64,000 bases of DNA. It comes from an uncultured Gammaproteobacteria bacterium. GTDB taxonomy: Bacteria; Patescibacteriota; Patescibacteriia; Buchananbacterales; UBA6539. The stretch covers positions 256 through 64,255 of the forward strand of contig CAZHUO010000003.1 in the NCBI GenBank assembly GCA_964535715.1. The letters run 5' to 3'. Position 1 is the first letter of the stretch; every line of letters starts with the position of its first letter. Below the pieces are notes generated by a model, which saw nothing but the letters and a program-made list of their open reading frames with translations, ran no database searches and was not told where the DNA came from. This document shows, piece after piece, positions 7,806 to 61,677 of this stretch. Position numbers and translations under genes: made by a program.

Positions 7806-8537
7806 ATGAAAAAAGGGGTAACAATTATTTCATCAACCGCACAAGATATTTTTGTTGATTCAGAAAATAAGGTTGTAAAAAAGAAAAAAGGCGGGCCAGG
7901 TTACTTTATCAGGCAAGCATTGGAAGACAGAAAGGTTCCTTTTAATAATATCAATAAGTGGGACACTAAGATAGAATTATATTTGACCAAGTCCGGAAAA
8001 CCAAACAATAAATTATTTAAGGGTAAGGTTGTAGGAGTAGTGCCTAAATTTAATTTGCCAATAAAACAGATGACGGAATATAGTATTGTTTCAACTATCG
8101 CTAATGAATGGAAATTAAGGGAAATAAAAAATTATAAAGGTAAGTTGTTTCTAGATATCCAGGGTTATGTTCGAGATCCGAAGAAATTTTCAGTTAAAAA
8201 ACAATGGCCTCAAATTTCTTCTTTGGTAGAATATATTTATTGTCTTAAGGGTACAAACCAAGAGGTTAAACTTTTACCTAAAAGTGTTATCAATATTGCT
8301 AAGAAAAAATTATTGATAATAACCGACGGTTCAAATAAAGTAAAGGTGTTCCATGATAATAAGAAGTTTGAATTCAGCATTGTTAAAGTGAACAACCTTT
8401 TCGATTACATTGGTGCGGGTGATACTTTTTTCGGCCATTTTGTTGCCGGCTTATACAAAGGATTTACTATGAATAATTCGGCTAAAATTGCCATTAATAA
8501 GACTAGAATTTTTTTAGAAAATAAATTAACTATTTAA
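7806..8537 (+). CDS. PfkB-family (ribokinase-like) sugar kinase, short form
   Basis: C-terminal GAGDTF anion-hole signature (DYIGAGDTFFGHFVAGL). N-terminal GG-like dinucleotide (KGGPGYF). Confidence 0.6.
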   Translation: MKKGVTIISSTAQDIFVDSENKVVKKKKGGPGYFIRQALEDRKVPFNNINKWDTKIELYLTKSGKPNNKLFKGKVVGVVPKFNLPIKQMTEYSIVSTIANEWKLREIKNYKGKLFLDIQGYVRDPKKFSVKKQWPQISSLVEYIYCLKGTNQEVKLLPKSVINIAKKKLLIITDGSNKVKVFHDNKKFEFSIVKVNNLFDYIGAGDTFFGHFVAGLYKGFTMNNSAKIAINKTRIFLENKLTI

Positions 8538-8549
8538 TTATCAAAAACT

Positions 8550-9203
8550 ATGAAACCATGGCAAGAAAATAGAAAAGAAACTAAGAAATTTTTTCAAAAA
8601 AAACAAAAAGAAGGTTTGTCATTAGGATCATCTCCCTGGACTACGCTAGCAGTTGGTAAGGAATTGCAACAATTAGTAATTGATGGCGTTATCAAGGAGG
8701 GAATGGTCGCTATGGACGTGGGCTGCGGAATTGGCGTAGAGGCAATGTATCTAGCCAAGCAGGGATTAAAAGTTACTGGTCTCGATTTTATACCCAAGAC
8801 TATTGAAACAGCCAAAGAAATGGCTAAGTTAGCTGAAGCGGATGTTGATTTAATCTCTGATGATTTTATCGATATGGATTTAAAAGAATACGAAGGCAAA
8901 TTTGATTTAGTTATTGATCAGGGTTGTTTTCACCATATTCCGGTAGAGGAAAGAATTAACTATGCTGAAAGAGTTTATTCTTTGTTGTCAGATGACGGGA
9001 TATTTTTTTTGCGGGGATTTTCTGATGAGATGTTGCCTTCACCAACTGGCGATGGCCCGATTAGACTGACTTCAGATGCTATTATTCATAGTTTTTATAA
9101 GTTGTTCTTTATTGAGAAACTTTATCGGTTTAGAAATATACCTTTGCCTAATGTGAATAAACCTCAAATTTTTTGGGCTTTTTTAGGTAAGAAGAGGTGT
9201 TAA
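8550..9203 (+). CDS. Class I SAM-dependent methyltransferase
   Basis: Motif I VAMDVGCGIGVEA. Motif post-I VTGLDFIP. Motif II LVIDQGCFHHI. Confidence 0.75.
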   Translation: MKPWQENRKETKKFFQKKQKEGLSLGSSPWTTLAVGKELQQLVIDGVIKEGMVAMDVGCGIGVEAMYLAKQGLKVTGLDFIPKTIETAKEMAKLAEADVDLISDDFIDMDLKEYEGKFDLVIDQGCFHHIPVEERINYAERVYSLLSDDGIFFLRGFSDEMLPSPTGDGPIRLTSDAIIHSFYKLFFIEKLYRFRNIPLPNVNKPQIFWAFLGKKRC

Positions 9204-15375: not shown

Positions 15376-15666
15376 ACTATTTATGCTATAAAAGTTTGAT
15401 TAAGTCAAATTTTTTTACTCATTTTTTCTTTTTATACTGTTGCATTCATCTCATTTACCCTGACCCATTCGACTTCGCTCAGGGTCACCTCGAGTGGAAT
15501 CGAGAGGTGACCGACCCCCGTCAGAACTCATTCTCAAAAGACCCCTGAAACCTTGCCAATAATTGGTTCCAGACCGCAGTGCGGAGCTGAGGATTTTTTG
15601 TTTAGGCAGTCACAGTGGTAGAGTCCCGCGAATGCGGGGTTAACCAATCGGTTCCTGGTTCTGCGC

Positions 15667-15745
15667 CACCTTAATTAATCAAAAAGGCGCATCCCCGCCA
15701 TAGGCGGACAAGCGTCTACGGCGGAGAGTCCAGGCCGCGGAGTAA
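15667..15745. repeat. GC-rich hairpin/pseudoknot-capable repeat, copy A. It is the first unit of a ~114-bp tandem repeat.
   Basis: AAAGGCGCATCCCCGCCATAGGCGGACAAGCGTCTACGGCGG. The unit recurs at 15781 and 45398. Confidence 0.6.
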
Positions 15746-15780
15746 AGGGCTTATTTTATTAAAAAAAATCGTTTCTGCTT

Positions 15781-15880
15781 CACCTTAATTGACTAAAAAG
15801 GCGCATCTTCTCCATAGGCTGACAAGCGCCTCTGACAGGGATTCCAGGCCGCGGCGCCGAGGATTTTTAAAATTAAAAAA
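15781..15880. repeat. GC-rich repeat copy B (tandem with A, period ~114 bp)
   Basis: CACCTTAATTGACTAAAAAGGCGCATCTTCTCCATAGGCTGACAAGCGCCTCTGACAGGGATTCCAGGCCGCGG aligns with copy A, including its flanks. Confidence 0.6.
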
Positions 15881-30388: not shown

Positions 30389-30437
30389 AATTATAATGGA
30401 AAATCCGAATAAAAAAATATTGATTATTGAAGATGAC
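30389..30437 (+). repeat. Duplicated 5' fragment of the 30586 receiver gene (promoter-proximal plus first ~14 codons)
   Basis: aattatAATGGAAAATCCGAATAAAAAAATATTGATTATTGAAGATGAC is ~98% identical to 30582-30630, with one mismatch (ataATG vs atgATG). The G-to-A change in the upstream copy creates a TATAAT. Confidence 0.7.
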
Positions 30438-30585
30438 CACGCCCCAATTCCGCGATAATGTTTATTTAAAATCAATTTAAAAAGCGCGCGAATCCCGCCT
30501 TTCGGCTTGTAAAGTTATTGAGTCAAGTTTGAAGATTGAATTGAGGCGGGGCGAGACGTGTATATTTACTAATTTGTAACGAATT

Positions 30586-30969
30586 ATGATGGAAAATCCG
30601 AATAAAAAAATATTGATTATTGAAGATGACAATTTTTTAGCCAAAATGTTAAGCAGAATGATTACGGATTCTGGATATGAAGTTATTTTATCTTCATCCG
30701 GGCAGGAGGGTGTAAATAAAGCCGAAAGCAATAATGATATAGATTTAATTATATTGGATATTATGCTTCCGGATATTGATGGTTTTGAAGTATTAGAAAA
30801 AATCAAATCAAGCCAAAAAACGAAAAAAATACCGGTAGTAATAATGTCTAACCTTGGACAGCCCGAGGATGTTAAGCGGGGCAAGAATCTAGGGGCTATT
30901 GATCATTTGGTAAAAAGCGATTTCAGCCTTGACGAAGTTGCAAAGAAAATAAAAGGTTTTTTAGCATAG
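30586..30969 (+). CDS. Stand-alone response regulator receiver (PilH/CheY-like) heading the pilus locus
   Basis: ILIIEDD...LIILDIMLPDIDG...PVVIMSNLG receiver motifs. Confidence 0.8.
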   Translation: MMENPNKKILIIEDDNFLAKMLSRMITDSGYEVILSSSGQEGVNKAESNNDIDLIILDIMLPDIDGFEVLEKIKSSQKTKKIPVVIMSNLGQPEDVKRGKNLGAIDHLVKSDFSLDEVAKKIKGFLA

Positions 30970-34017: not shown

Positions 34018-34461
34018 ATGAGAGGTTTTACTTTAATTGAATTAATATTGGTTATTGCAATTATCTCCATAGTTGCGACTTTAAGTGTTCCATTTATCCA
34101 AATTTTTCAAACTTCATCTGATTTTTATACTCACGTTGATACAATTACTAAAACATTGCGTAAAGCCCGCCATTTAGCCGTAACCGGAAAGAACGGATCT
34201 GATTGGGGGGTTTATTTTGATAATATTGAAAAAAAAATAATTCTATTCAAGGGAAATAATTTTGCCGTCCGCGATACGAATTATGATTTGGAGGAAAAAT
34301 ACGCCGACATATTCAGTGTCAACGCCGATTTTGGCAATGAAATCTATTTTGCTTTATATTCCGGCCTGCCCTCCGCTTACGGTACTGTCACCGCATCTAC
34401 CATAGTTAATAATGATATCAAATATATAAACATACAAAGTTTTGGTTTGATAAATAAATAA
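34018..34461 (+). CDS. Prepilin-type (pseudopilin / minor pilin) protein
   Basis: N-terminal G-FTLIELILVIAIISIV class III signal with Glu+5. Confidence 0.8.
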   Translation: MRGFTLIELILVIAIISIVATLSVPFIQIFQTSSDFYTHVDTITKTLRKARHLAVTGKNGSDWGVYFDNIEKKIILFKGNNFAVRDTNYDLEEKYADIFSVNADFGNEIYFALYSGLPSAYGTVTASTIVNNDIKYINIQSFGLINK

Positions 34462-37013
34462 TGCATTCATTTAATAAATTTAAAAACCAAATAGGTTTAA
34501 GCTTGGTTGAAATTATTTTAGCCATAGCATTGTTTGGGCTTGTTTCAGTTCCGCTTATTTTAATACTTATTAATTCATATGGCAGCAATCTTCAAGCTGA
34601 AGAAAGAGAAATTGCTGTTTTATATGCACAGCAGGGAATTGAAGCGGTAAAATCAATCCGCAGGCAGGCCTGGAATTTATTAGATAATGGCAATTATGGC
34701 TTGACCAATGTTAACGGTTACTGGCAGTTTTTGGGCAGTTCTGATTTATTGGAAAATAAATATACCCGGACTATTACAATTTCTGATGCTTGTCGTGACA
34801 GCGGAAATAATTTGGTTGACTGTCCTAATGTTTTAGTTGATTTTCATGCAAAAAAAATTATATCTTCAGTTGATTACAATTCTATCAATGGTTTTAATAA
34901 TGTTGTTAATTTGGTCAGTTACGTCACTATCTGGCAATCAAAAGACTGGGTGCAAACCGACTGGTCGGGCGCTTTGGGCCAAACTCAATGGTTTGACCAG
35001 TCAAAATATTTTAGTGATGACGGTAATATAGATTATTCCACTAGCGGAGAAATCAAATTAAAAAGCCTAGAAGGCGGCGGAGGCTGCGGCGTCAAGATTT
35101 GGATTTTTGATAACTCTGCCGATTACACTTATGACCCTAATAAAATTGAGGTTACTGGCGGTTTTGCCCAGCTTAAAGGTACGTCTTTTTGCTCTGGAAC
35201 GCCGACTTCGTGCGGCAATCTTGCCAGTCAGATTTCCTGCCAAGCTCAAGCTGGCTGCAGCTGGGATCAACCACCAGGCAATTGTCAAAATAATGGCAGT
35301 TGTACAGCTGTATCCCGCAATGAATGCAATACTTGCAATTTAGCCGGCTGTTCCCGCAGCGGCAACAAATGTACTGGTACCTTAAACTGCTCAGCTTATA
35401 CCAGCCAAGCTGCTTGCGGCACCTGTAATCAGTGTTTATGGAGCCAGCAGCCTGGTTCTTGCTTGGGCACGCCGACTCCTTGCGGTAATTTAACTGACCA
35501 AACTTCTTGTCAAACTCAAACTGGTTGCAGCTGGACTGGCAATTATCCGGCCGACCAACCAGATATTTATCCGGTTGCCTCTTTTAGCGTTCCACAAATT
35601 GATGCCTGGACTTCTTTTACTGAAGTGGCGACCAAAAACGGAGGAGAAATTTATTACCAGCTTTCCGATGGTACGACCTGGTATTGGTATGATGGCAGTA
35701 ATTGGGCGCCGGCTAATACTGACCCCGGTACGACGGATTATAATTTAGCCAGCGTGATTAGCACTAATATTAACAGTTTCCCAGTTAGTAGCCAGGAAAT
35801 AAAATTTAAAGCATTTTTTCAAAGTGATGGTTTGCAGCAAGTTCAGTTAGATGAAGTAAAAATTAGCTGCTCGCAATATTATGATTGGCCTTTTACAGCA
35901 AATGCCGATTACACCTATGACCCTAATAAAATTGAGGTTACTGGCGGTTTTGCCCAGCTTAAAGGTACGGCTTTTTGTTCTGGTACTCCAAATCCTTGCA
36001 GTAATTTTACCAGTCAAACTTCCTGCCAAACTCAAGCTGGCTGCAGCTGGGATCAACCACCAGGCAATTGTCAAAATAATGGCAGTTGTACAGCTGTATC
36101 CCGCAATGAATGCAATACTTGCAATTTAGCCGGCTGTTCCCGCAGCGGCAACAAATGTACTGGTACCTTAAACTGCTCAGCTTATACCAGCCAAGCTGCT
36201 TGCGGCACCTGTAATCAGTGTTTATGGAGCCAGCAGCCTGGTTCTTGCTTGGGCACGCCGACTCCTTGCGGTAATTTAACTGACCAAACTTCTTGTCAAA
36301 CTCAAACTGGTTGCAGCTGGACTGGCAATTATCCGGCCGACCAACCAGATATTTATCCGGTTGCCTCTTTTAGCGTTCCACAAATTGATGCCTGGACTTC
36401 TTTTACTGAAGTGGCGACCAAAAACGGCGGTGAAATTTATTACCAGCTTTCCGATAATGAAGGATCAAGCTGGAAATTTACCAATGGCATTGTTTGGCTG
36501 CCGGTAACAGGGTCGACCGACTATAATACAGCAAGTGAAATTAATTCCAGTATTCTAGCTTTTCCGACAACAACGGCGAAAATTATGTTTAAAGCATTCC
36601 TTTCTTCAGATGGCAGCCAGCAGGTTCAGCTAGATAACGTGACTATCGGCTTTGGCGAAGCGGTTGGCATAAGCGGCTATACAACCGCCGGCTGGCTTGA
36701 ATCATCGGCTTTTAACACCGGCTGGTTTAGCTCTTTTAATTTTTTGTCCTGGACGGAGACTATTCCTTCAGCCGCCTATGATATTCAAATACAAATCTCA
36801 ACTGCCCCAGACAACGCCGGCGTGCCCGGAATTTGGTCAGATTGGCTTGGACCAAGCGGGTCTGGCAGCTTTTATTTAAGCGGCGATGAAATTATAATTC
36901 CTATATTTAATAACCACAACGACAGCCAATGGGTGAAATATAAAATTTTTATGAGTGGTGACGGCATTGATACTCCAATTTTGCAAGACATAAAAATTAA
37001 TTATACACCATGA
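34461..37013 (+). CDS. Giant pilin-like protein. It has a prepilin-type N-terminal helix followed by two near-identical 262-aa Cys-rich repeats and a C-terminal beta-rich region.
   Basis: N-terminal GLSLVEIILAIALFGL with Glu+5. Repeat unit CSGTP..CGN...CQ.Q.GCSWDQPPGNCQNNGSCTAVSRNECNTCNLAGCSRSGNKCTGTLNCSAYTSQAACGTCNQCLW... occurs twice. Confidence 0.7.
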   Translation: MHSFNKFKNQIGLSLVEIILAIALFGLVSVPLILILINSYGSNLQAEEREIAVLYAQQGIEAVKSIRRQAWNLLDNGNYGLTNVNGYWQFLGSSDLLENKYTRTITISDACRDSGNNLVDCPNVLVDFHAKKIISSVDYNSINGFNNVVNLVSYVTIWQSKDWVQTDWSGALGQTQWFDQSKYFSDDGNIDYSTSGEIKLKSLEGGGGCGVKIWIFDNSADYTYDPNKIEVTGGFAQLKGTSFCSGTPTSCGNLASQISCQAQAGCSWDQPPGNCQNNGSCTAVSRNECNTCNLAGCSRSGNKCTGTLNCSAYTSQAACGTCNQCLWSQQPGSCLGTPTPCGNLTDQTSCQTQTGCSWTGNYPADQPDIYPVASFSVPQIDAWTSFTEVATKNGGEIYYQLSDGTTWYWYDGSNWAPANTDPGTTDYNLASVISTNINSFPVSSQEIKFKAFFQSDGLQQVQLDEVKISCSQYYDWPFTANADYTYDPNKIEVTGGFAQLKGTAFCSGTPNPCSNFTSQTSCQTQAGCSWDQPPGNCQNNGSCTAVSRNECNTCNLAGCSRSGNKCTGTLNCSAYTSQAACGTCNQCLWSQQPGSCLGTPTPCGNLTDQTSCQTQTGCSWTGNYPADQPDIYPVASFSVPQIDAWTSFTEVATKNGGEIYYQLSDNEGSSWKFTNGIVWLPVTGSTDYNTASEINSSILAFPTTTAKIMFKAFLSSDGSQQVQLDNVTIGFGEAVGISGYTTAGWLESSAFNTGWFSSFNFLSWTETIPSAAYDIQIQISTAPDNAGVPGIWSDWLGPSGSGSFYLSGDEIIIPIFNNHNDSQWVKYKIFMSGDGIDTPILQDIKINYTP
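35121..35669 (+). repeat. Intragenic tandem repeat, copy 1 (period 786 bp)
   Basis: 35243-35669 is identical to 36029-36455 apart from 2 nt. Confidence 0.85.
35907..36455 (+). repeat. Intragenic tandem repeat, copy 2
   Basis: See copy 1. Confidence 0.85.
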
Positions 37014-45397: not shown

Positions 45398-45480
45398 GCT
45401 AAAGGCGCATCTACTGTACATCTCCGCCATAGGTGGACAAGCGCCTCTGGCGGAAAAATTCGAATTTTAAAATTCAAAAT
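45398..45480. repeat. GC-rich hairpin/pseudoknot-capable repeat, copy C (same family as 15667 and 15781)
   Basis: AAAGGCGCATCTACTGTACATCTCCGCCATAGGTGGACAAGCGCCTCTGGCGG. Confidence 0.55.
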
Positions 45481-45491
45481 TATAAATAATT

Positions 45492-48317
45492 ATGTCTAAC
45501 AAATTTATCACAATCCGCGGAGCCCGCGAACACAACTTAAAAAACATTAACGTTGATATTCCGATTGATAAGCTGACCGTAATTACCGGCTTGTCCGGCT
45601 CGGGAAAATCAACGCTGGCTTTTGATACCATTTATGCCGAGGGTCAGCGCCGGTATGTTGAAAGTTTATCCGCTTATGCGCGGCAATTTTTGGGTTTAAT
45701 GAATAAGCCGGATGTTGATAAAATCACCGGACTATCGCCGGCAATTTCCATTGAACAGAAATCAATTTCCAAAAATCCCCGGTCAACTGTCGGAACGATT
45801 ACTGAAATTGCTGATTATTTACGTTTACTTTATGCCAGAATAGGAATTCCACATTGTCCAAATTGTGGTAAACGGATTATGTCGCAATCGGTTGAAATGA
45901 TTACCGAAACATTACTTAAAGAAAAAAATGGCACTAAAATTCAAATTTTAGCTCCAATCATTCGTAGTAAAAAGGGAACCTATGAAAAACTTTTTATGGA
46001 ATTAGAGAAGAAAGGTTATATTAGAATCAGACTAAACGGCGAAATAAAGGATTTGGCTGATTTTGAAAATTTCAAGTTAAACAAGCAGACAAAACATAAT
46101 ATTGAAATAGTCATTGACCGGTTGGTTATTAAAAAAGGCGTTGAAAGCCGGCTTAATGAAGCGATTGAAACCGCTTTAGGCGAAGCTGAGGGATTGGTTT
46201 TGGCAATAATCGAAAAAAACGAACGGCTATTTTCTCAAGCCAATGCTTGTGCTGACTGTGGTATTTCAGTCGGCGAACTGCAGCCCAGGATGTTTTCTTT
46301 TAATTCGCCGTTTGGCGCTTGCCCAAATTGCCATGGTTTAGGTTATTTACAACAGGTTGATGCTGATTTAATCATTCCAGATAAAAATATATCTTTAGCC
46401 CAAGGCGCGGTAAAACCATGGAAAGCACACGGCGAAGGCTGGCGAAACCAGCAACTGGACGGCTTGGCAAAGTATTACCATTTTGACCTTTGGACTCCTT
46501 GGAAAAATTTACCTAAAAAAGTTCAAGATATTGTATTATTTGGCAGTAAAGATGAAATAAAATTTGACGTAAAATCATGGGAAGGCCAAATGAGTCATAG
46601 TTGGACCGGCAGTTTTGAAGGCATAATCCCGCAAATTGAAAGACTATATAAGCAAACCGAATCGGAATGGCGCAGGCAGGAAATGGAAAAATTTATGCGT
46701 TTAGGTGATTGTCCTAATTGTGGCGGCAAGCGGCTTAAACCCGAAGTTTTGGCAGTTACGATTAACAATAAAAACATTTGGGAAGCAACGGAATTTTCGA
46801 TTGAAAGAGCTTTGGAATTTTTCAGCAATTTGCAGTTGACTAAGCAGGAAACCGAAGTTGCCCGCTTAATTCTAAAAGAAATTGAAAATCGGTTGAAATT
46901 TTTGATTAATGTAGGCTTAAACTATTTGACTCTGTCTCGCGCCGCCCAGACGCTTTCCGGCGGGGAGGCTCAACGGATTAGATTAGCCACCCAAATCGGT
47001 TCGGAACTGCGCGGAGTTTTGTATATACTAGACGAGCCGTCAATTGGCTTGCACCAACGAGACAACGAAAAACTGATTTCGACTTTAAGAAATTTAAGAG
47101 ATTTGGGCAATACGGTTATTGTGGTTGAGCATGATTCAGAAACAATTTTAACAGCTGACCATGTTATTGATCTGGGGCCGGGTGCGGGCATCCATGGCGG
47201 TGAAATTGTCTGTTTTGGCACGCCACAGCAAATAAAAAAATGTCCATATTCGCTTACCGGTCAATACTTGGTCGGCAAGCTGTCAATTAATATTCCGGCT
47301 AAGCGGCGCAAGGCTTTTGATTTTTTGGAAATTTTCGGCGCTCAGCAGAATAATTTGAAAAATATTGACGTAAAAATTCCGCTTAAAGTCTTTACCTGCG
47401 TCACCGGCGTTTCGGGTTCGGGAAAAAGCAGTCTGGTTAATGATATTTTGTATAAAGCTTTATATAAAATATTTTTGGCATCAACGGAAAAACCTGGTAA
47501 GTATAAGAACATGAAAGGCTATGGCTTATTAGATAAAGCGGTTATCGTTGATCAGTCGCCGATTGGCCGAACGCCCCGAAGCAACCCGGCAACATATATC
47601 GGAGTTTTCACTTATATCAGAGAATTATTTACAATGACCAAAGAAGCCAAAGCCAAAGGCTATAAATCCGGCCGGTTCAGCTTTAATGTCTCCGGCGGCC
47701 GTTGCGAAGAATGCGAAGGCGATGGGGTAAAGAAAATCGAAATGCATTTTCTGCCGGACGTTTATATTGAATGTGAGAAATGCAAGGGTCGGCGCTATAA
47801 TCAGGAAACTTTGGCGATCAAATACAAAAATAAAAATATTGCCGATATTTTGAATATGACTGTTGAAGAAGCACTTAATTTTTTTGAAAATATTCCGCGG
47901 GTAAAAAGCAAGCTTCAGACTTTATATGATGTCGGTTTGGGTTATATTACTTTAGGTCAGAGTGCCACGACATTATCGGGTGGGGAAGCCCAGCGCATAA
48001 AACTTACATCTGAACTATCCCGCAAAGGCGGCAATACAATGTACATTTTGGATGAGCCGACAACCGGTTTGCATTTTGCCGATGTAAAAAAATTGCTGGA
48101 AGTTTTAAATCGTTTAGTTGATAAGGGTAATTCGGTTTTGGTCATCGAACATAATTTAGACGTGATTAAATCGGCTGATTGGGTGATTGATTTGGGACCT
48201 GAAGGCGGGGATAAGGGCGGGAGGATTATTGCCGAAGGCACGCCCGAGAAAATTGCCAAATGCGCGAAGTGGAGCTATACCGGGAAGTATCTCCGGGAAG
48301 TTTTAGGTAGTAGGTAG
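45492..48317 (+). CDS. uvrA: Excinuclease ABC subunit A
   Basis: Two ABC ATPase modules ([18 protein letters not shown]), LSGGE signatures and zinc-finger Cys clusters. Confidence 0.95.
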
Positions 48318-48738: not shown

Positions 48739-48846
48739 TGTTTATTTCCTCCTATTTGTTGTGTTATTTTAACCGGAACAAGGAATGCTAGCATTTTTTA
48801 GGCATATTCCTCTCCCTCTGGTCATTTCGACCGAGTATTCATATAT

Positions 48847-48945
48847 CTTGTCACTCTGAACTTGCCTGCCCGCCGAAACGAAATGAAGGCGGGTTTCAGA
48901 GTCTCAAGACTTCCCTAGATCCTGAACCAAGTTCAGGATGACAAA
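48847..48945 (-). mobile_element. MITE-like / structured repeat element, copy X (terminal inverted repeats TTTGTCA(T/C)(C/T)CTGAACTTG)
   Basis: About 95% identical to the reverse complement of 61510-61608. It is embedded in a ~235-bp unit (48833-49067) that is also conserved. Confidence 0.65.
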
Positions 48946-49036
48946 AATGACAAGTACTGTAAGCTCAGATGAACGGCGACGGAACAAATAATTTGCATGA
49001 GCGTATTCGTAGTACGCCATGAAAGGCTCCGGAACA

Positions 49037-49067
49037 TAAAAAAACCGCTTAGCATTTGCTAAGCGGG
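49037..49067 (-). terminator. Minus-strand intrinsic terminator after the metallophosphoesterase gene
   Basis: CCGCTTAGCAAATGCTAAGCGG hairpin followed by T7. Confidence 0.6.
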
Positions 49068-54851: not shown

Positions 54852-55517
54852 ATGGGAACACTATTTATCGTCGCAACGCCAATTGGCAATTTGGAAGATA
54901 TCACTTTGCGCGCCTTAAGAATTTTAAAAGAAGTTGATTTAATTGCCTGCGAAGACACGCGGGTGACAAAGAGACTATTGGAACATTATCAAATTGATAA
55001 GCAGGTAATAAGTTATCATCAGCATAGCCAAGTCGGTAAAGTTGATTTTTTGCTGGAAAAATTAAAACAAGGAAAAAATATTGCCTTGGTATCAGACGCC
55101 GGAACACCTGGAATTTCCGATCCGGGAGGACTTCTGGTTTCAGCGGCGGCAAGCGAGGGGATTAAAGTTGAAGCAATTGTCGGACCAAGTGCCTTGACTG
55201 CGGCATTGTCGATTTCCGGACTGCCGACAGACAAATTTTTATTTTTGGGATTTTTGCCTCATAAAAAAGGCAGAGAGACTCTGATTAAAGAAATTATTGA
55301 GTCAAAATATACTATTGTTTTTTATGAATCGGTTCATCGGATTATTAAGGCGCTTGGGCAGTTAAACGAGGCGGGCTTAGAGAGAAAAGTTGTTGTTTGT
55401 CGCGAACTGACCAAGAAGTTTGAAACAGTCTACCGGGGTAAAATTAATGAAGTTTTGAAGCTATTACAAGATGACCAGGTTAAGGGGGAATTTGTGGTCA
55501 TAATTTCAGCAAGATAA
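54852..55517 (+). CDS. rsmI: 16S rRNA (cytidine1402-2'-O)-methyltransferase
   Basis: Tetrapyrrole-methylase-fold motifs GTLFIVATPIGNLEDIT, ACEDTR and GTPGISDPG. Confidence 0.85.
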   Translation: MGTLFIVATPIGNLEDITLRALRILKEVDLIACEDTRVTKRLLEHYQIDKQVISYHQHSQVGKVDFLLEKLKQGKNIALVSDAGTPGISDPGGLLVSAAASEGIKVEAIVGPSALTAALSISGLPTDKFLFLGFLPHKKGRETLIKEIIESKYTIVFYESVHRIIKALGQLNEAGLERKVVVCRELTKKFETVYRGKINEVLKLLQDDQVKGEFVVIISAR

Positions 55518-55600
55518 GTATTAAGCAAGATAGGCAAGATAAGTTTCTAATAAAATTATCTTGCTTATCTCGCCTATCTTGCTTATCTTGCTTAATAAAT

Positions 55601-57028
55601 ATGTCAAAGAAATTCTACATAACTACCGCCATACCGTACGTTAATGCCAGTCCGCACATTGGCTTTGCCTTGGAATTGGTTCAAACAGATGTTATTGCCA
55701 GATATTATAAGCAGAAAGGACGCGATGTTTTCTTTTTAACCGGTGCTGATGAAAATAGCTTAAAAAACGTTCAAGCGGCCGAAAAAGAGAAAATTACAAC
55801 CAGGCAATTGGTTGACAAAAATACTCAGAAATTTATTGACTTAACTAAGGCTTTGAATATTTCAAATAATGATTTTATCAGGACTGTTTCGGAAAAGCAT
55901 TTTTTAGGCGCTCAAAAGCTTTGGTCTGCCTGCAAAAAAGAAGATATTTATAAAAAGAAATACAAAGGTCTTTACTGTGTGGGTTGTGAGCAGTTTTATG
56001 CTGAAAAAGAGCTGGTTGACGGCAAATGTCCGGAGCACCAAAAAGAGCCGGAAGTAATAGAAGAAGAAAATTATTTTTTTAAATTGTCAAATTATCAAAA
56101 ACAGCTTGAAAAATTAATTGAATCGGATGAATATGAAGTCGTGCCTAAAACCAGGAAAAATGAAGTTTTGAGTTTTATCCGCATGGGTTTGGAAGATTTC
56201 TCGATTTCCCGATCTCAGGCTCGTGCAAAAAATTGGGGTGTTCCTGTACCAGGCGATGAATCGCAGGTTATGTATGTCTGGTTTGACGCTTTAAGCAATT
56301 ATATTACCGCTTTAGATTATGATAAGAAAGGAAAAGATTTTAAAAATTACTGGCCGGCTGATGTTCATGTAATTGGTAAAGGGATAATTCGTTTTCATGC
56401 CGTTTACTGGCCGGCGATGCTTCTTTCGGCGGGGATACCTTTGCCGAAAAAGCTTTTTGTTCACGGTTACATAAACATTGGAGGGGGAAAAATGTCAAAA
56501 TCTCTAGGTAATGTTATTGACCCTTTTGAATTGGTAAAAAAATATGGAATTGAGCCGGTTCGTTATTATCTTTTGCGCTACATTCACCCAATCCAAGATA
56601 GCGATTTTAGCATCGAAAAATTTGAAGAGTCTTATAATTCCGATTTAGCCAACGGCTTGGGAAATCTTGTCAGCCGAGTGGCCGGCCTTATTGAGCAGAA
56701 TAATATAAAAATTAAAATGAAATTGCCAAAAGAAGATGAAAAATTTTCTAAATTGGTGGAATCTTTCAGCTTTGACCAGGCTTTAAAGTATGTCTGGTAT
56801 AAGATTTCCGAAGTTGATGGAAAAATTTCAAGCGCTAAGCCATGGTCTTTGGCAAAGGAAGGAAAAACAAAGGAAGTTGCGGATATTTTAAATCAGGCGG
56901 CAAATGATGTTTTACAGATAAGCTATCTGCTAAAGCCATTTTTACCGTCGGTTTCAGTCAGTATAAAAAATATTTTCTTTTCCTTAAAAATTGTTAAAGG
57001 TGATCCGCTTTTCCCGCGGTTAAACTAA
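55601..57028 (+). CDS. metG: Methionine--tRNA ligase (catalytic core only). Its HIGH motif reads HIGF.
   Basis: PYVNASPHIGF, zinc knuckle CVGCEQ...CPEH, YVWFDAL and KMSKS. Confidence 0.85.
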   Translation: MSKKFYITTAIPYVNASPHIGFALELVQTDVIARYYKQKGRDVFFLTGADENSLKNVQAAEKEKITTRQLVDKNTQKFIDLTKALNISNNDFIRTVSEKHFLGAQKLWSACKKEDIYKKKYKGLYCVGCEQFYAEKELVDGKCPEHQKEPEVIEEENYFFKLSNYQKQLEKLIESDEYEVVPKTRKNEVLSFIRMGLEDFSISRSQARAKNWGVPVPGDESQVMYVWFDALSNYITALDYDKKGKDFKNYWPADVHVIGKGIIRFHAVYWPAMLLSAGIPLPKKLFVHGYINIGGGKMSKSLGNVIDPFELVKKYGIEPVRYYLLRYIHPIQDSDFSIEKFEESYNSDLANGLGNLVSRVAGLIEQNNIKIKMKLPKEDEKFSKLVESFSFDQALKYVWYKISEVDGKISSAKPWSLAKEGKTKEVADILNQAANDVLQISYLLKPFLPSVSVSIKNIFFSLKIVKGDPLFPRLN

Positions 57029-57032
57029 TTAA

Positions 57033-57140
57033 TTTGTCATGCTAACTGCCTACCAGATAAGCAGGCTTGTTTCGGCACCTTGTAGCCAAGGCTATGAGAC
57101 CCTGAAATAAACCTGCCAGCAGGCAGGTTCAGGGTGACAA
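57033..57140 (+). mobile_element. Divergent third copy (Z) of the MITE-like / structured element
   Basis: 5' TTGTCATGCTAACT and 3' GCAGGTTCAGGGTGACAA match the termini of X and Y. Internal blocks TGAGACCCTGAAA..CCTGCC and TTGTTTCGGC are rearranged relative to X and Y. Confidence 0.45.
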
Positions 57141-57150
57141 TAATAAAAAT

Positions 57151-57669
57151 ATGTTTATAACAATTCTTGATTTGATTTTAATTTTAATTCTTTTTATTTT
57201 TATTTCCTTCGGCTTTGCTTTAGGGCTGGTTCAGACAGTGGGAGCATTGATCGGAGTGGTTCTTGGCGCCTGGGCGGCAGGAGCATGGTATGAACCTTTG
57301 GGTCTATGGCTTCAGGATATAACGCTTGGCAATGCCGCTTTTTCGAGAATTATCGCCTTTGTTGCAATTTTTGTGATTATTAACCGCCTAGTTGGTCTTA
57401 TTTTTTATATTATAAATAAAATATTTAATTTGATTTCAATTATACCTTTTGCTAAAAGCCTTAATCGTATCATGGGGGCTTTTTTAGGGGCTTTGGAAGG
57501 TGTTTTGGTATTAGGTCTGATACTTTATTTTGTTTCCCGCTTTGCTTTTACTGATTGGATTATTAATGTACTAACCGCTTCCAAAATGGCAATGTTTTTG
57601 GTTTGGGTTGCCAATATATTGGCGCCGCTTTTGCCGGAAATTTTAAGACAGCTTAAGTCGGTTATTTAA
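57151..57669 (+). CDS. cvpA: CvpA-family membrane protein
   Basis: N-terminal ILDLILILILFIFISFGFALGLVQTVGALIGVVLG pattern and four TM helices. Confidence 0.6.
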   Translation: MFITILDLILILILFIFISFGFALGLVQTVGALIGVVLGAWAAGAWYEPLGLWLQDITLGNAAFSRIIAFVAIFVIINRLVGLIFYIINKIFNLISIIPFAKSLNRIMGAFLGALEGVLVLGLILYFVSRFAFTDWIINVLTASKMAMFLVWVANILAPLLPEILRQLKSVI

Positions 57670-57921
57670 AGCGAGATAAGTTTTAAGCAAGATAAGCAAG
57701 ATAAGTAGTATTAGAAATTCTAAAATCTAGATTATAAATAAATCCTCGAATATAAGCACCAAATTACAAATTACAAATCCCAAACAAATATCAAATCATA
57801 AAACTCAAATTTCAAACACTAGTTTAGACGTTTAAAAATTGAGATTTCGAATTTGTTTGGATTTTGAGATTTAGAATTTGTAATTTGAATTTAGAAATTA
57901 ATAGACTTGTCTTGCCAAACT

Positions 57922-61130: not shown

Positions 61131-61397
61131 ATGAAATGCCCAGTATGTGAAAATGAAACCTCGGTGGTTGATAGTAGGATATCTAAAGATGGCAAACGAA
61201 TCAGACGGCGCAGACAGTGCCAAAATCCAAAATGCAAAGAGCGCTTTACCACATATGAAGTTTTTGATGAAACCCTGAAAGATTTGCCTTCTTCTTCTGT
61301 TAAAACCATGGTGGTTGCATTAACACACCTCATTTCTTTATTGCCAAGAGAGGCGCAAGAGGATGTTGTTGAGAGGATTAATACCAACAGCCGGTAA
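61131..61397 (+). CDS. nrdR: NrdR-like zinc-ribbon protein, truncated, with no recognisable ATP-cone
   Basis: [43 protein letters not shown] matches the NrdR N-terminal zinc ribbon. The remaining 45 aa do not match an ATP-cone. Confidence 0.55.
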
Positions 61398-61418
61398 AAT
61401 ACTGGCTGTCTTTTTTTA
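61388..61418 (+). terminator. Intrinsic terminator after the nrdR-like gene; it forms the first part of repeat unit Y
   Basis: CAGCCGGTAAAATACTGGCTG hairpin followed by T7. Confidence 0.65.
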
Positions 61419-61509
61419 TGTTCCAAAGCCTGTCATGGCGCTTAACAATGCATTCATGCGAATACTATAGTTCCGCAGCCGGTCTCTCAACCTACAGTAC
61501 TTGTCTATT

Positions 61510-61608
61510 TTTGTCATCCTGAACTTGATTCAGGATCTGGGGAAGCCTTGAGACTCTGAAACCCGCCTTCACTTCGTTTCGGCGGGCAGGCAAGTTCAGA
61601 GTGACAAA
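61510..61608 (+). mobile_element. MITE-like / structured repeat element, copy Y
   Basis: TTTGTCATCCTGAACTTG ... CAAGTTCAGAGTGACAAA termini. About 95% identical to the reverse complement of 48847-48945. Confidence 0.65.
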
Positions 61609-61648
61609 ATATATGAATACTCAATCGTAATGACAATAACAAGCAATA

Positions 61649-61677
61649 TTGACATTCAGCTTTTTAATCGCTAATAT
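61649..61677 (+). promoter_or_regulatory. Sigma70-like promoter TTGACA-17-TAATAT for pgk
   Basis: Read directly. It lies immediately downstream of repeat Y. Confidence 0.5.

Follow-up and report, generated by a model that had tools for sequence, protein, structure and literature searches.

Three related elements, which we call X, Y and Z, lie in a 64-kb (64,000-nucleotide) stretch of contig CAZHUO010000003.1 from an uncultured bacterium (the window), and our analysis indicates that they are most probably DNA-level elements that consist of inverted dimers of short tagged hairpins without a gene between them. The hairpins belong to the TGTC/CGTC-tagged motifs that resemble repetitive extragenic palindromes (REPs) and are related to the small nuclease Ssn. 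X, Y and Z correspond to a cassette found in other genomes, in which two inverted hairpins (H1 and H2) bracket an ssn gene (H1-ssn-H2), minus the gene. Their stem type, CTGAA, appears to be new as a sequence, and the kind of hairpin element to which they belong has already been described. An initial annotation of this DNA had preferred a cis-acting RNA or promoter-bearing element and had kept a MITE (miniature inverted-repeat transposable element) as its fallback; the fallback comes closer, but X, Y and Z are inverted REP-like hairpin dimers of the Ssn-associated type and not a classical MITE with terminal inverted repeats and target-site duplications.

Extent of the repeats

The sequences at the three sites in the window are as given in the initial annotation, which had recognized X (minus strand) and Y (plus strand) as reverse complements of one another. 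This is borne out by a blastn alignment with 85.6% identity over 194 nt and by a 128-nt arm, 94% identical, returned by a repeat finder (inverted repeat I1). The annotation had also aligned 48833-49067 with 61388-61623 from end to end; the shared unit is real, but its homology extends over about 224 nt, from the T-run to about 61634 in Y and 48821 in X, with sharp ends, and excludes the terminators. As had been stated, X and Y each stand directly behind a terminator hairpin of their own with a different sequence, and because the two stems are only 50% alike we regard these terminators as unrelated. The observed counts of the motifs common to the copies were reached in 0 of 100 shuffled sequences, and a profile of the hairpin unit matches only X, Y and Z within the window, whose GC content of 36.6%, taken with its genes, hints at a CPR-like source (candidate phyla radiation).

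Z had been taken for a third, rearranged copy. It does have the tags and the ends of H2 in common with X and Y, but these are the only common parts, and Z is not a third copy of the 235-nt unit but an independent dimer from this hairpin family that has decayed further. All three elements lie just past gene ends and are co-oriented with the neighbouring genes inside the window. The placement of all three between a terminator and a co-directional gene, on which the annotation had relied, stands for X and Y, which lie behind terminators; no terminator-like site was found before Z, and co-orientation fails across the family as a whole (below).

Two tagged hairpins form the core

The inverted-repeat ends, the local hairpin and the CCCGCC/GGCGGG stem that had been noticed in the core are all present, and the core folds better than shuffled sequences. 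It is, however, not merely bounded by terminal inverted repeats: it is made of two tagged hairpins, inverted with respect to each other and with their tags outward. The general unit begins with 5'-YGTC and continues with an 8-bp stem A(T/C)NC(T/C)GAA, a 5-nt loop or a loop that holds a nested hairpin, the return stem and a C. H1 of X and Y carries the tag TGTCAT and their H2 the tag TGTCAC, and the same two tags are found in Z; a C directly follows the palindrome in all six units of the window. The window dimers are heterodimers, in which an ATNC stem is paired with an ACNC stem. Folded as RNA, the three copies beat their shuffles with z scores of -5.2, -3.3 and -5.2, and as single-stranded DNA (ssDNA) they do so on both strands (z -3.3 to -3.8). 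Two local hairpins and one long hairpin are nearly equal in energy for the dimer, whether it is folded as RNA or as ssDNA and on either strand.

In X and Y the dimer is part of a larger composite, with a leader behind the terminator and outer flanks on either side (Table 1). Neither leader has significant structure. That of Y holds a promoter-like site at 61442-61471 which is not conserved in X, and that of X holds a weak tagged-hairpin-like stretch, TTTC-ATGGCGTA-CTACGAA-TACGCTCAT, which is possibly a decayed third hairpin unit. Short open reading frames (ORFs) of 34 and 40 amino acids that follow the terminator T-run were considered as coding sequences and rejected, since neither their frame nor their content agrees between X and Y and no ribosome-binding site can be recognized. 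The left outer flank of Y pairs with 61607-61623 in the fold, with a complementarity of 12 of 18 positions that equals the 99th percentile of the null. Outer inverted flanks are not a family-wide trait (mean complementarity 7.9, versus 7.3 for the null), and only Y and one locus from elsewhere (L098) reach that percentile. For this reason the X/Y composite, that is, the dimer with its outer inverted flanks and decaying leader, duplicated as one block, looks lineage-specific.

Table 1. Parts of X, Y and Z and the adjoining terminator-like hairpins. Positions are those of the window, and identities are between X and Y.
Feature	Positions	Strand	X/Y identity	Basis or remark
Copy Y, whole unit of ~224 nt (T-run and leader, outer inverted flanks, hairpin dimer)	61410..61634	+		homology to X starts at 61410/61411 and stops at 61634
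Y leader (T-run and ~80 nt)	61410..61493	+	72% (72.4%)	no significant fold (z -0.10)
Y left outer flank, ACAGTACTTGTCTATTTT	61494..61511	+	94%	imperfect inverted repeat of the right outer flank
Y H1: TGTC tag, ATCCTGAA stem, loop of CTTGA, return stem TTCAGGAT, C followed by TG	61512..61538	+	96%	profile E 1.4e-8
Y spacer between H1 and H2	61539..61550	+	83%	position of the ssn gene in full cassettes elsewhere
Y H2: TGTC tag, ACTCTGAA stem, loop enlarged by a hairpin nested in it, return stem TTCAGAGT, C	61551..61606	-	98%	
Nested GC hairpin CCCGCC-N13-GGCGGG in the Y H2 loop	61562..61586	.		folds
Y right outer flank, AAATATATGAATACTCAATCGTAATGAC, ending ATGAC	61607..61634	+	86%	
Sequence past the right end			48%	equal to random
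Copy X, whole unit of ~224 nt, reverse complement of Y	48821..49044	-		alignment to Y
X H1, TGTCATCCTGAACTTGGTTCAGGATCT	48917..48943	-		profile E 6e-9
X H2, tag on the plus strand, nested hairpin 48869-48893	48849..48904	+		alignment, profile
X leader	48961..49044	-	72%	local hairpin z -1.4, not significant
Copy Z, dimer	57035..57139	+		decayed H1 57035-57080 with loop insert; spacer 57081-57096; H2 57097-57139, its nested hairpin at 57112-57127
Intrinsic-terminator-like hairpin of the metallophosphoesterase gene	49045..49066	-	50% (stems)	directly before X; not homologous to that of Y
Intrinsic-terminator-like hairpin of the short NrdR-like gene	61387..61409	+	50% (stems)	directly before Y

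The hairpin family in other genomes

A collection of genomes was scanned with a pattern that joins the two H2 half-sites, which yielded at least 118 loci, selected for carrying the motif; the family counts given here and below for units, dimers, orientation and ORFs are among the matches listed in that scan. Judged from the titles of the records, the loci represent about 18 phylum-level lineages, among them Nitrospirota, Nitrospinota, Bacteroidota, Ignavibacteria/Chlorobiota, Melainabacteria and Treponema; Syntrophales and other Desulfobacterota, Planctomycetota, Atribacteria, Caldiserica and Calditrichota; Zixibacteria, WOR-3, Stahlbacteria, Dadabacteria, Elusimicrobiota, Cloacimonadota and one gammaproteobacterial metagenome-assembled genome (MAG); and five groups of the candidate phyla radiation (CPR), namely Falkow-, Parcu-, Kerfeld-, Gottesman- and Curtissbacteria. 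None of these GTDB loci coincides with any part of the window. The loci contain 248 simple units in 806 kb. The composite dimer pattern has 85 matches, which represent fewer distinct dimers because the search covered the two strands and one quasi-palindromic dimer may be counted on both; a stricter pattern, with which the window was searched as well, gives 47 oriented dimers. A typical dimer reads TGTCATGCTGAACTTGTTTCAGCATCT, a spacer of 5-40 nt and AGACCCTGAAAC...GTTCAGGGTGACA, often with a nested hairpin in the H2 loop. The motif is multi-copy in the loci that carry it, and 141 of 159 copies are intergenic.

The units are strongly constrained in sequence. All 258 units carry a C directly after the palindrome, where the search had admitted either C or G; in front of GTC, 168 have T and 77 have C, together 245 of the 258 (95%). 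The 5-nt loop is CTTGT in 131 units and TTTAT in 48, and the tail is CTC, CTT or CTA (n = 258). A unit in a Syntrophales MAG (L041) matches the 27-nt H1 of Y with 100% identity, and a unit in another Syntrophales locus (L004) does the same for that of X; units 96% identical to H1 are present in loci from Flavobacteriaceae, Gastranaerophilales, Falkowbacteria and Treponema. H2 of Z matches a unit from Thermodesulfovibrionia (L039) at 88% identity over 49 nt. A scan of viral contigs with the dimer pattern gave 0 matches, and a full-text search of papers with the literal motif sequences returned only chance matches to primers.

Blocks with sharp boundaries are found in unrelated contexts, and the clearest case, with X/Y as the second, is a pair of elements on two contigs of one Nitrospirales MAG (L010, at ~1029, and L087, at ~1260, both on the minus strand). 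Here an element of ~180 nt, composed of an outer inverted repeat GGCTGTTRCCCRAA and a hairpin dimer, is about 97% identical between the two contigs, the flanks are unrelated, and one copy has an insertion of 33 nt exactly in the loop of H1.

Two further features of these loci were seen. Tandem arrays made up of H2 half-sites only (GTTCAGGGTGAC plus ~9-10 nt, with a period of ~22 nt and up to at least 4 copies) extend from the dimers in L035, L100, L017, L072 and L086; such arrays, in Gastranaerophilales and Treponema loci, are not explained by the hairpin-dimer model. In loci from Syntrophales, Nitrospirota and 'Deltaproteobacteria' (L004, L014, L027, L089, L090, L111 and L025) the dimers are followed by a conserved GACTTTTTACGAG or GACTTTTGCAAG, and some copies are preceded by the inverse, TCGTAAAAAGTC, which suggests outer inverted repeats that are lineage-specific, comparable to those of X/Y.

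A small GIY-YIG gene lies between the hairpins in other genomes

All-against-all comparison of the 699 ORFs in the listed loci showed that one small recurrent family adjoins the elements, a single-domain GIY-YIG protein of ~100 (~95-110) amino acids. A profile of this protein finds 10 such ORFs in the 118 loci and an eleventh in L131, a single metagenome match. Examples are the ORFs at 116-436 in L061 and 7851-8183 in L131. Nine of the former 10 are complete; upstream of each stands a tagged hairpin and downstream a second, inverted one, the tags facing outward; all 10 complete ORFs, that of L131 included, are bracketed on both sides by hairpins, usually within ~100 nt. The remaining ORF (L010) is cut by the end of its contig and has one hairpin on the readable side. 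The hairpins at the 10 ORFs of the 118 loci are of the CTGAA type in 8 cases and of a TCCTGC type in the other 2, both from a Mariniflexile genome. The gene order in these loci is H1-ssn-H2.

The ORFs match Pfam family PF01541 (GIY-YIG) over nearly the whole protein, with E values from 8e-19 to 1e-13. Their closest described counterpart in layout is SsnA of Neisseria meningitidis, a 94-amino-acid single-domain GIY-YIG protein (CDD cd10448) that binds and cuts the Neisseria repeat NTS, CGTCATTCCCGCGMAVGCGGGAATCYRG (Chenal et al., Nat Commun 2025; PMC11893778). The spacing of Y11, Y22 and E69 in the protein of L096 equals that of Y6, Y17 and E64 in SsnA, and judging by size, domain and catalytic-residue spacing the ORFs beside the motif appear to be Ssn-like. 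NCBIfam has no specific model for the ssn-like protein, and a sequence search of the PDB with it gave no match.

Homologues of Ssn are widespread and typically lie between their own "Ssn-related motifs" (SRM) in the order motif-gene-motif (PMC11893778), and the units of the window have the architecture of SRM: tag, stem, loop, C, inverted dimers and intergenic position. A tie to X and Y comes from L131, where one member of the hairpin cluster immediately behind the ssn-like ORF is an H2 that matches the H2 of X/Y at 85% identity over 67 nt. The same locus has, at 8180-8590, a dense group of at least 5 GTCAT-tagged hairpins with different stems (TTGCG..., TTCTGAGC..., TTCGAATCC...), which suggests that several motif types coexist beside one nuclease gene.

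Evidence against the Ssn-related reading, and alternatives to it

Several observations weigh against our assignment of X, Y and Z. The profile finds no GIY-YIG ORF of the ssn type in the 64-kb window, which is why we speak of gene-less dimers. The published SRM pattern, HGTCWYN(0-2)YYVSBRHN(0-5)WNVSBRGN(0-2)RNCYNB, which was built from 29 genomes of 4 phyla (PMC11893778), has 0 matches in the window, and the NTS control passes; CTGAA units fail it because A occupies the S position (C or G), so that for this type the cognate pairing of nuclease and motif is drawn from genomic association only. By itself, the hairpin-dimer model does not account for the leader that X and Y share at 72% identity. 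No empty-site alleles of X, Y or Z were found in six public assemblies with identical neighbouring proteins. Finally, transposition driven by Ssn has been raised only as a hypothesis (PMC11893778) and is demonstrated for no member of the family.

X, Y and Z might instead be immobile DNA sites domesticated by the host, either for Ssn-mediated restriction of incoming ssDNA, as proposed for the Neisseria NTS, or as stabilizers of mRNA 3' ends, as for the REPs of Escherichia coli. A role of NTS and SsnA in the control of transformation has been shown in N. meningitidis (PMC11893778), all three elements are positioned just past gene ends, and Z is fixed, being present in 6 of 6 public assemblies that span metG-cvpA. 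We nevertheless think domestication improbable. Units of 27 nt are identical across unrelated phyla, and the sharp-bounded copies in unrelated contexts, one with a nested loop insertion, speak for ongoing or recent spread; moreover, the window lacks an ssn gene, and since canonical terminators already precede X and Y, these are not needed for 3'-end formation.

According to a second alternative, the elements are transcribed as structured cis-regulatory RNAs or small RNAs, with a three-way-junction fold that regulates the gene downstream or works in trans. The strong RNA folds and the co-orientation of the three copies with their neighbouring genes agree with this, as does covariation in the stems, which the initial annotation had proposed to look for: at the three stem positions that the search pattern did not fix, Watson-Crick pairs are formed by 249, 254 and 250 of the 258 units (96-98%), and at the same positions shuffled sequences average 138, 107 and 176 pairs (41-68%), with maxima over 1000 shuffles of 165, 131 and 192. 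A hairpin recognized as ssDNA predicts such covariation equally, however, so that covariation cannot by itself separate an RNA from a DNA hairpin, and G-T pairs at these positions are no commoner than C-A mismatches, although the numbers are tiny. Orientation to the flanking ORFs across the family is random (n = 104; 32 copies in sense and 35 in antisense between co-directional genes, 20 between convergent and 17 between divergent genes), which the annotation had named, together with target-site duplications, as a sign of a plain MITE, and the co-orientation seen in the window is therefore not general. Y lies between a terminator and the promoter-like site of pgk at 61649-61677, and its gap is for that reason probably poorly transcribed; X has no promoter-like site at the corresponding position, and none is conserved between the two. 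Across the entire window no Rfam model reaches its gathering threshold, and for Y, with E values up to 10, Rfam gives chance-level matches only. Lastly, the published protein partner binds ssDNA and not RNA. With random orientation, no shared promoter, unstructured leaders and no Rfam match, we find an RNA or promoter-bearing element very hard to defend.

We are equally sceptical of a classical MITE, that is, a deletion derivative of an insertion sequence with a DDE transposase, mobilized in trans through TGTCA...TGACA ends and leaving target-site duplications. The elements are small, multi-copy and intergenic, their inverted-repeat ends start with TG and end with CA, and the half-site arrays with their period of about 22 nt in some loci recall multiple transposase-binding sites. 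Target-site duplications, for which the initial annotation had suggested inspecting the termini, are seen neither at the boundaries of X/Y nor at those of L010/L087. No transposase family recurs beside the elements in the 699 ORFs of the loci, and in a Pfam scan of the 150 ORFs nearest to them no transposase family is in the top 25, where GIY-YIG ranks second after response regulators; the sole recurrent adjoining gene is the ~100-amino-acid GIY-YIG nuclease. In addition, each "terminal repeat" is a complete tagged hairpin, as in REP-type repeats.

A REPIN-type element mobilized by a RAYT or an IS200-like Y1 (HUH) transposase would have the same overall design, a pair of inverted REP hairpins separated by a short spacer and present in multiple intergenic copies, but we discount it almost entirely, given the YGTC tag in place of the GTAG of RAYT-associated REPs, the lack of any tyrosine transposase gene flanked by CGTC-type repeats (PMC3733652) and the lack of a recurrent Y1 transposase in either set of ORFs.

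A possible mechanism

The biochemistry of SsnA suggests how hairpins of the Ssn-related type could be used. SsnA acts only on ssDNA and only on the tagged strand, which it cuts a few nucleotides upstream of the tag; neither double-stranded DNA nor RNA nor the opposite strand serves as a substrate, RNA is not bound, and the C after the palindrome is the most critical base for binding (PMC11893778). Binding and cutting have been demonstrated for homologues from Neisseria (including N. elongata and N. wadsworthii) and Wolbachia (PMC11893778), and it is from these homologues, all of other stem types, that the following mechanism is taken. When the tagged strand is single-stranded, as during lagging-strand replication or in incoming transforming or conjugating DNA, it would fold into the hairpin, which an Ssn nuclease would bind sequence-specifically and nick a few nucleotides 5' of the tag. 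The units may spread inside a genome and from one genome to another in discrete blocks, making no target-site duplication and tending to nest in hairpin loops. Such spread is plausibly Ssn-dependent, loops and other single-stranded spots could be its preferred targets, and X, Y and Z are probably neutral passengers in the spacers just past gene ends.

The motif-gene-motif layout has been likened to an insertion sequence, and the role of Ssn outside Neisseria has been left open (PMC11893778). A bolder proposal, which we put forward tentatively and think rather unlikely as it stands, is that CTGAA-type H1-ssn-H2 cassettes are active, horizontally spreading transposons driven by the ~100-amino-acid GIY-YIG ssDNA nuclease, and that X, Y and Z are non-autonomous derivatives which insert without target-site duplication and preferentially in single-stranded hairpin loops. 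That preference, if true, would account both for the nested hairpins and for the placement next to terminators, and the nuclease would represent a class of transposase that has not yet been demonstrated.

Neighbouring sequences and other repeats in the window

The NrdR-like ORF upstream of Y (61131-61397) encodes only 88 amino acids, with a zinc ribbon (CPVC...CQNPKC, RFTTYE) and apparently without the ATP-cone domain. In public short-read assemblies of the same organism, contigs end inside X (at 48853) and inside Y, and the hairpin repeats explain why these assemblies break there; the organism is represented in SRR34875126, SRR29243436/37/40 and SRR11845619/34.

The window contains several other repeats. 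A GC-rich motif of ~45 nt with a nested hairpin, AAAGGCGCATC..CCGCCATAGG(C/T)GGACAAGCG(C/T)CTCTG, is present in three copies (15660-15880 and 45400-45470), two of them in a ~114-nt tandem repeat and one just upstream of a 941-amino-acid ORF at 45492; it has no Rfam match at the gathering threshold. At 15455-15510, in an otherwise AT-rich spacer, a GC-rich hairpin ACCCTGA-CCCATTCGACTTCGC-TCAGGGT is followed by CACCTCGAGTGGAATCGAGAGGTGACC and may belong to a different type of palindromic repeat. Repeats of the AAGCAAGATAAGCAAGATAAGT type, direct and inverted, follow two gene ends at 55501-55614 and 57663-57706 (D18, I3, I11), and between cvpA and the next gene lies an AT-rich palindrome (57760-57887) that is composed of short ATTACAAATT/CAAAT-like repeats and has 58-nt arms, 74% complementary, around a 12-nt gap. 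Within an 850-amino-acid ORF (34461-37013), a 300-nt direct repeat (D1; 35117-35416 and 35903-36202, 95% identical) suggests a recent internal domain duplication. A 49-nt direct repeat (D14; 30389-30437 and 30582-30630, 98% identical and 193 nt apart) lies over two apparent gene starts, AATTATAATGGAAAATCCGAATAAAAAAATATTGATTATTGAAGATGAC.

Significance and comparison with known systems

For this window the value of these findings lies mostly in annotation: X, Y and Z can be entered as Ssn-type REP-like hairpin dimers and not as candidate riboswitches or small RNAs. More widely, the CTGAA type escapes the published SRM pattern, yet it is found in about 18 phylum-level lineages, several CPR groups included, and the 27-nt units in them are often identical; the numbers of SRM/Ssn systems published so far are for that reason probably too low. 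A form of the pattern that admits NCYGAA stems would be, for example, YGTCAYNCYGAA-N3-8-TTCRGNRTC. The sharp-bounded copies without target-site duplication and the insertion into a loop are material that bears on the mobility of Ssn cassettes, a question left open by Chenal et al. (PMC11893778).

Among known mobile elements, the classical bacterial MITEs (such as the Correia element or Nezha) resemble X, Y and Z in their size of about 100-230 nt, inverted-repeat ends, intergenic position, multiple copies and long-hairpin fold; here, in contrast, there is neither a target-site duplication nor a parent DDE insertion sequence, and the ends are autonomous tagged hairpins. IS200/IS605 elements and their derivatives (PATEs) are likewise small single-gene elements whose subterminal hairpins are recognized in ssDNA and which make no target-site duplication, but their hairpins are on one and the same strand at the two ends, with TnpA (HUH) as the processing enzyme, whereas ours are inverted and associated with GIY-YIG. 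The REPINs and RAYTs, reportedly the work of Bertels and Rainey in 2011 and of Nunvar in 2010, have a similar plan, with two inverted REP hairpins that form a larger hairpin, a non-autonomous unit and a small nuclease-type gene between the same repeats. They differ in having a GTAG tag and a Y1 HUH transposase, compared with YGTC and GIY-YIG here, and in being inherited mostly vertically, where identical CTGAA-type units are found across phyla.

The "CGTC-tagged REPs" of Di Nocera, De Gregorio and Rocco (BMC Genomics 2013; PMC3733652), a super-family made up of four families, are tagged with CGTC or TGTC and have a stem of 8-9 bp whose first bases are AT, a loop of 4-5 nt and a 3-nt unpaired tail; they form mostly inverted dimers, often heterodimers, and are mostly intergenic. 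They occur in Proteobacteria, Chlorobi, Bacteroidetes, Spirochaetes and Thermotogae, include Neisseria dRS3 and Rickettsia RPE-4 and RPE-6, and have no dedicated transposase (PMC3733652). The present family agrees with them in its tag, its stem length and AT opening, its loop size, its inverted (hetero)dimers, its intergenic position, its Bacteroidetes, Chlorobi and Spirochaetes hosts and the absence of a transposase, and differs in its tail, which is CTN where theirs has a CCA consensus.

With the SRM and NTS of the Ssn system (PMC11893778) the family has in common the 5' YGTC-A(T/C) tag, a short, imperfect hairpin palindrome (20-50 nt in SRM) with an invariant C after it, hundreds of oriented copies per genome, and the motif-gene-motif arrangement around a single-domain GIY-YIG gene of ~94-110 amino acids. 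The stem is NCTGAA/TTCAGN here and TCCCGC/GCGGGA there; here the hosts belong mainly to Nitrospirota, Bacteroidota, Melainabacteria, Desulfobacterota and CPR, and the main text of that study is without Bacteroidota, Nitrospirota, Melainabacteria, Desulfobacterota and Patescibacteria/CPR. The dimers described here also differ in being heterodimers, often with nested hairpins, which in this window stand without an ssn gene.

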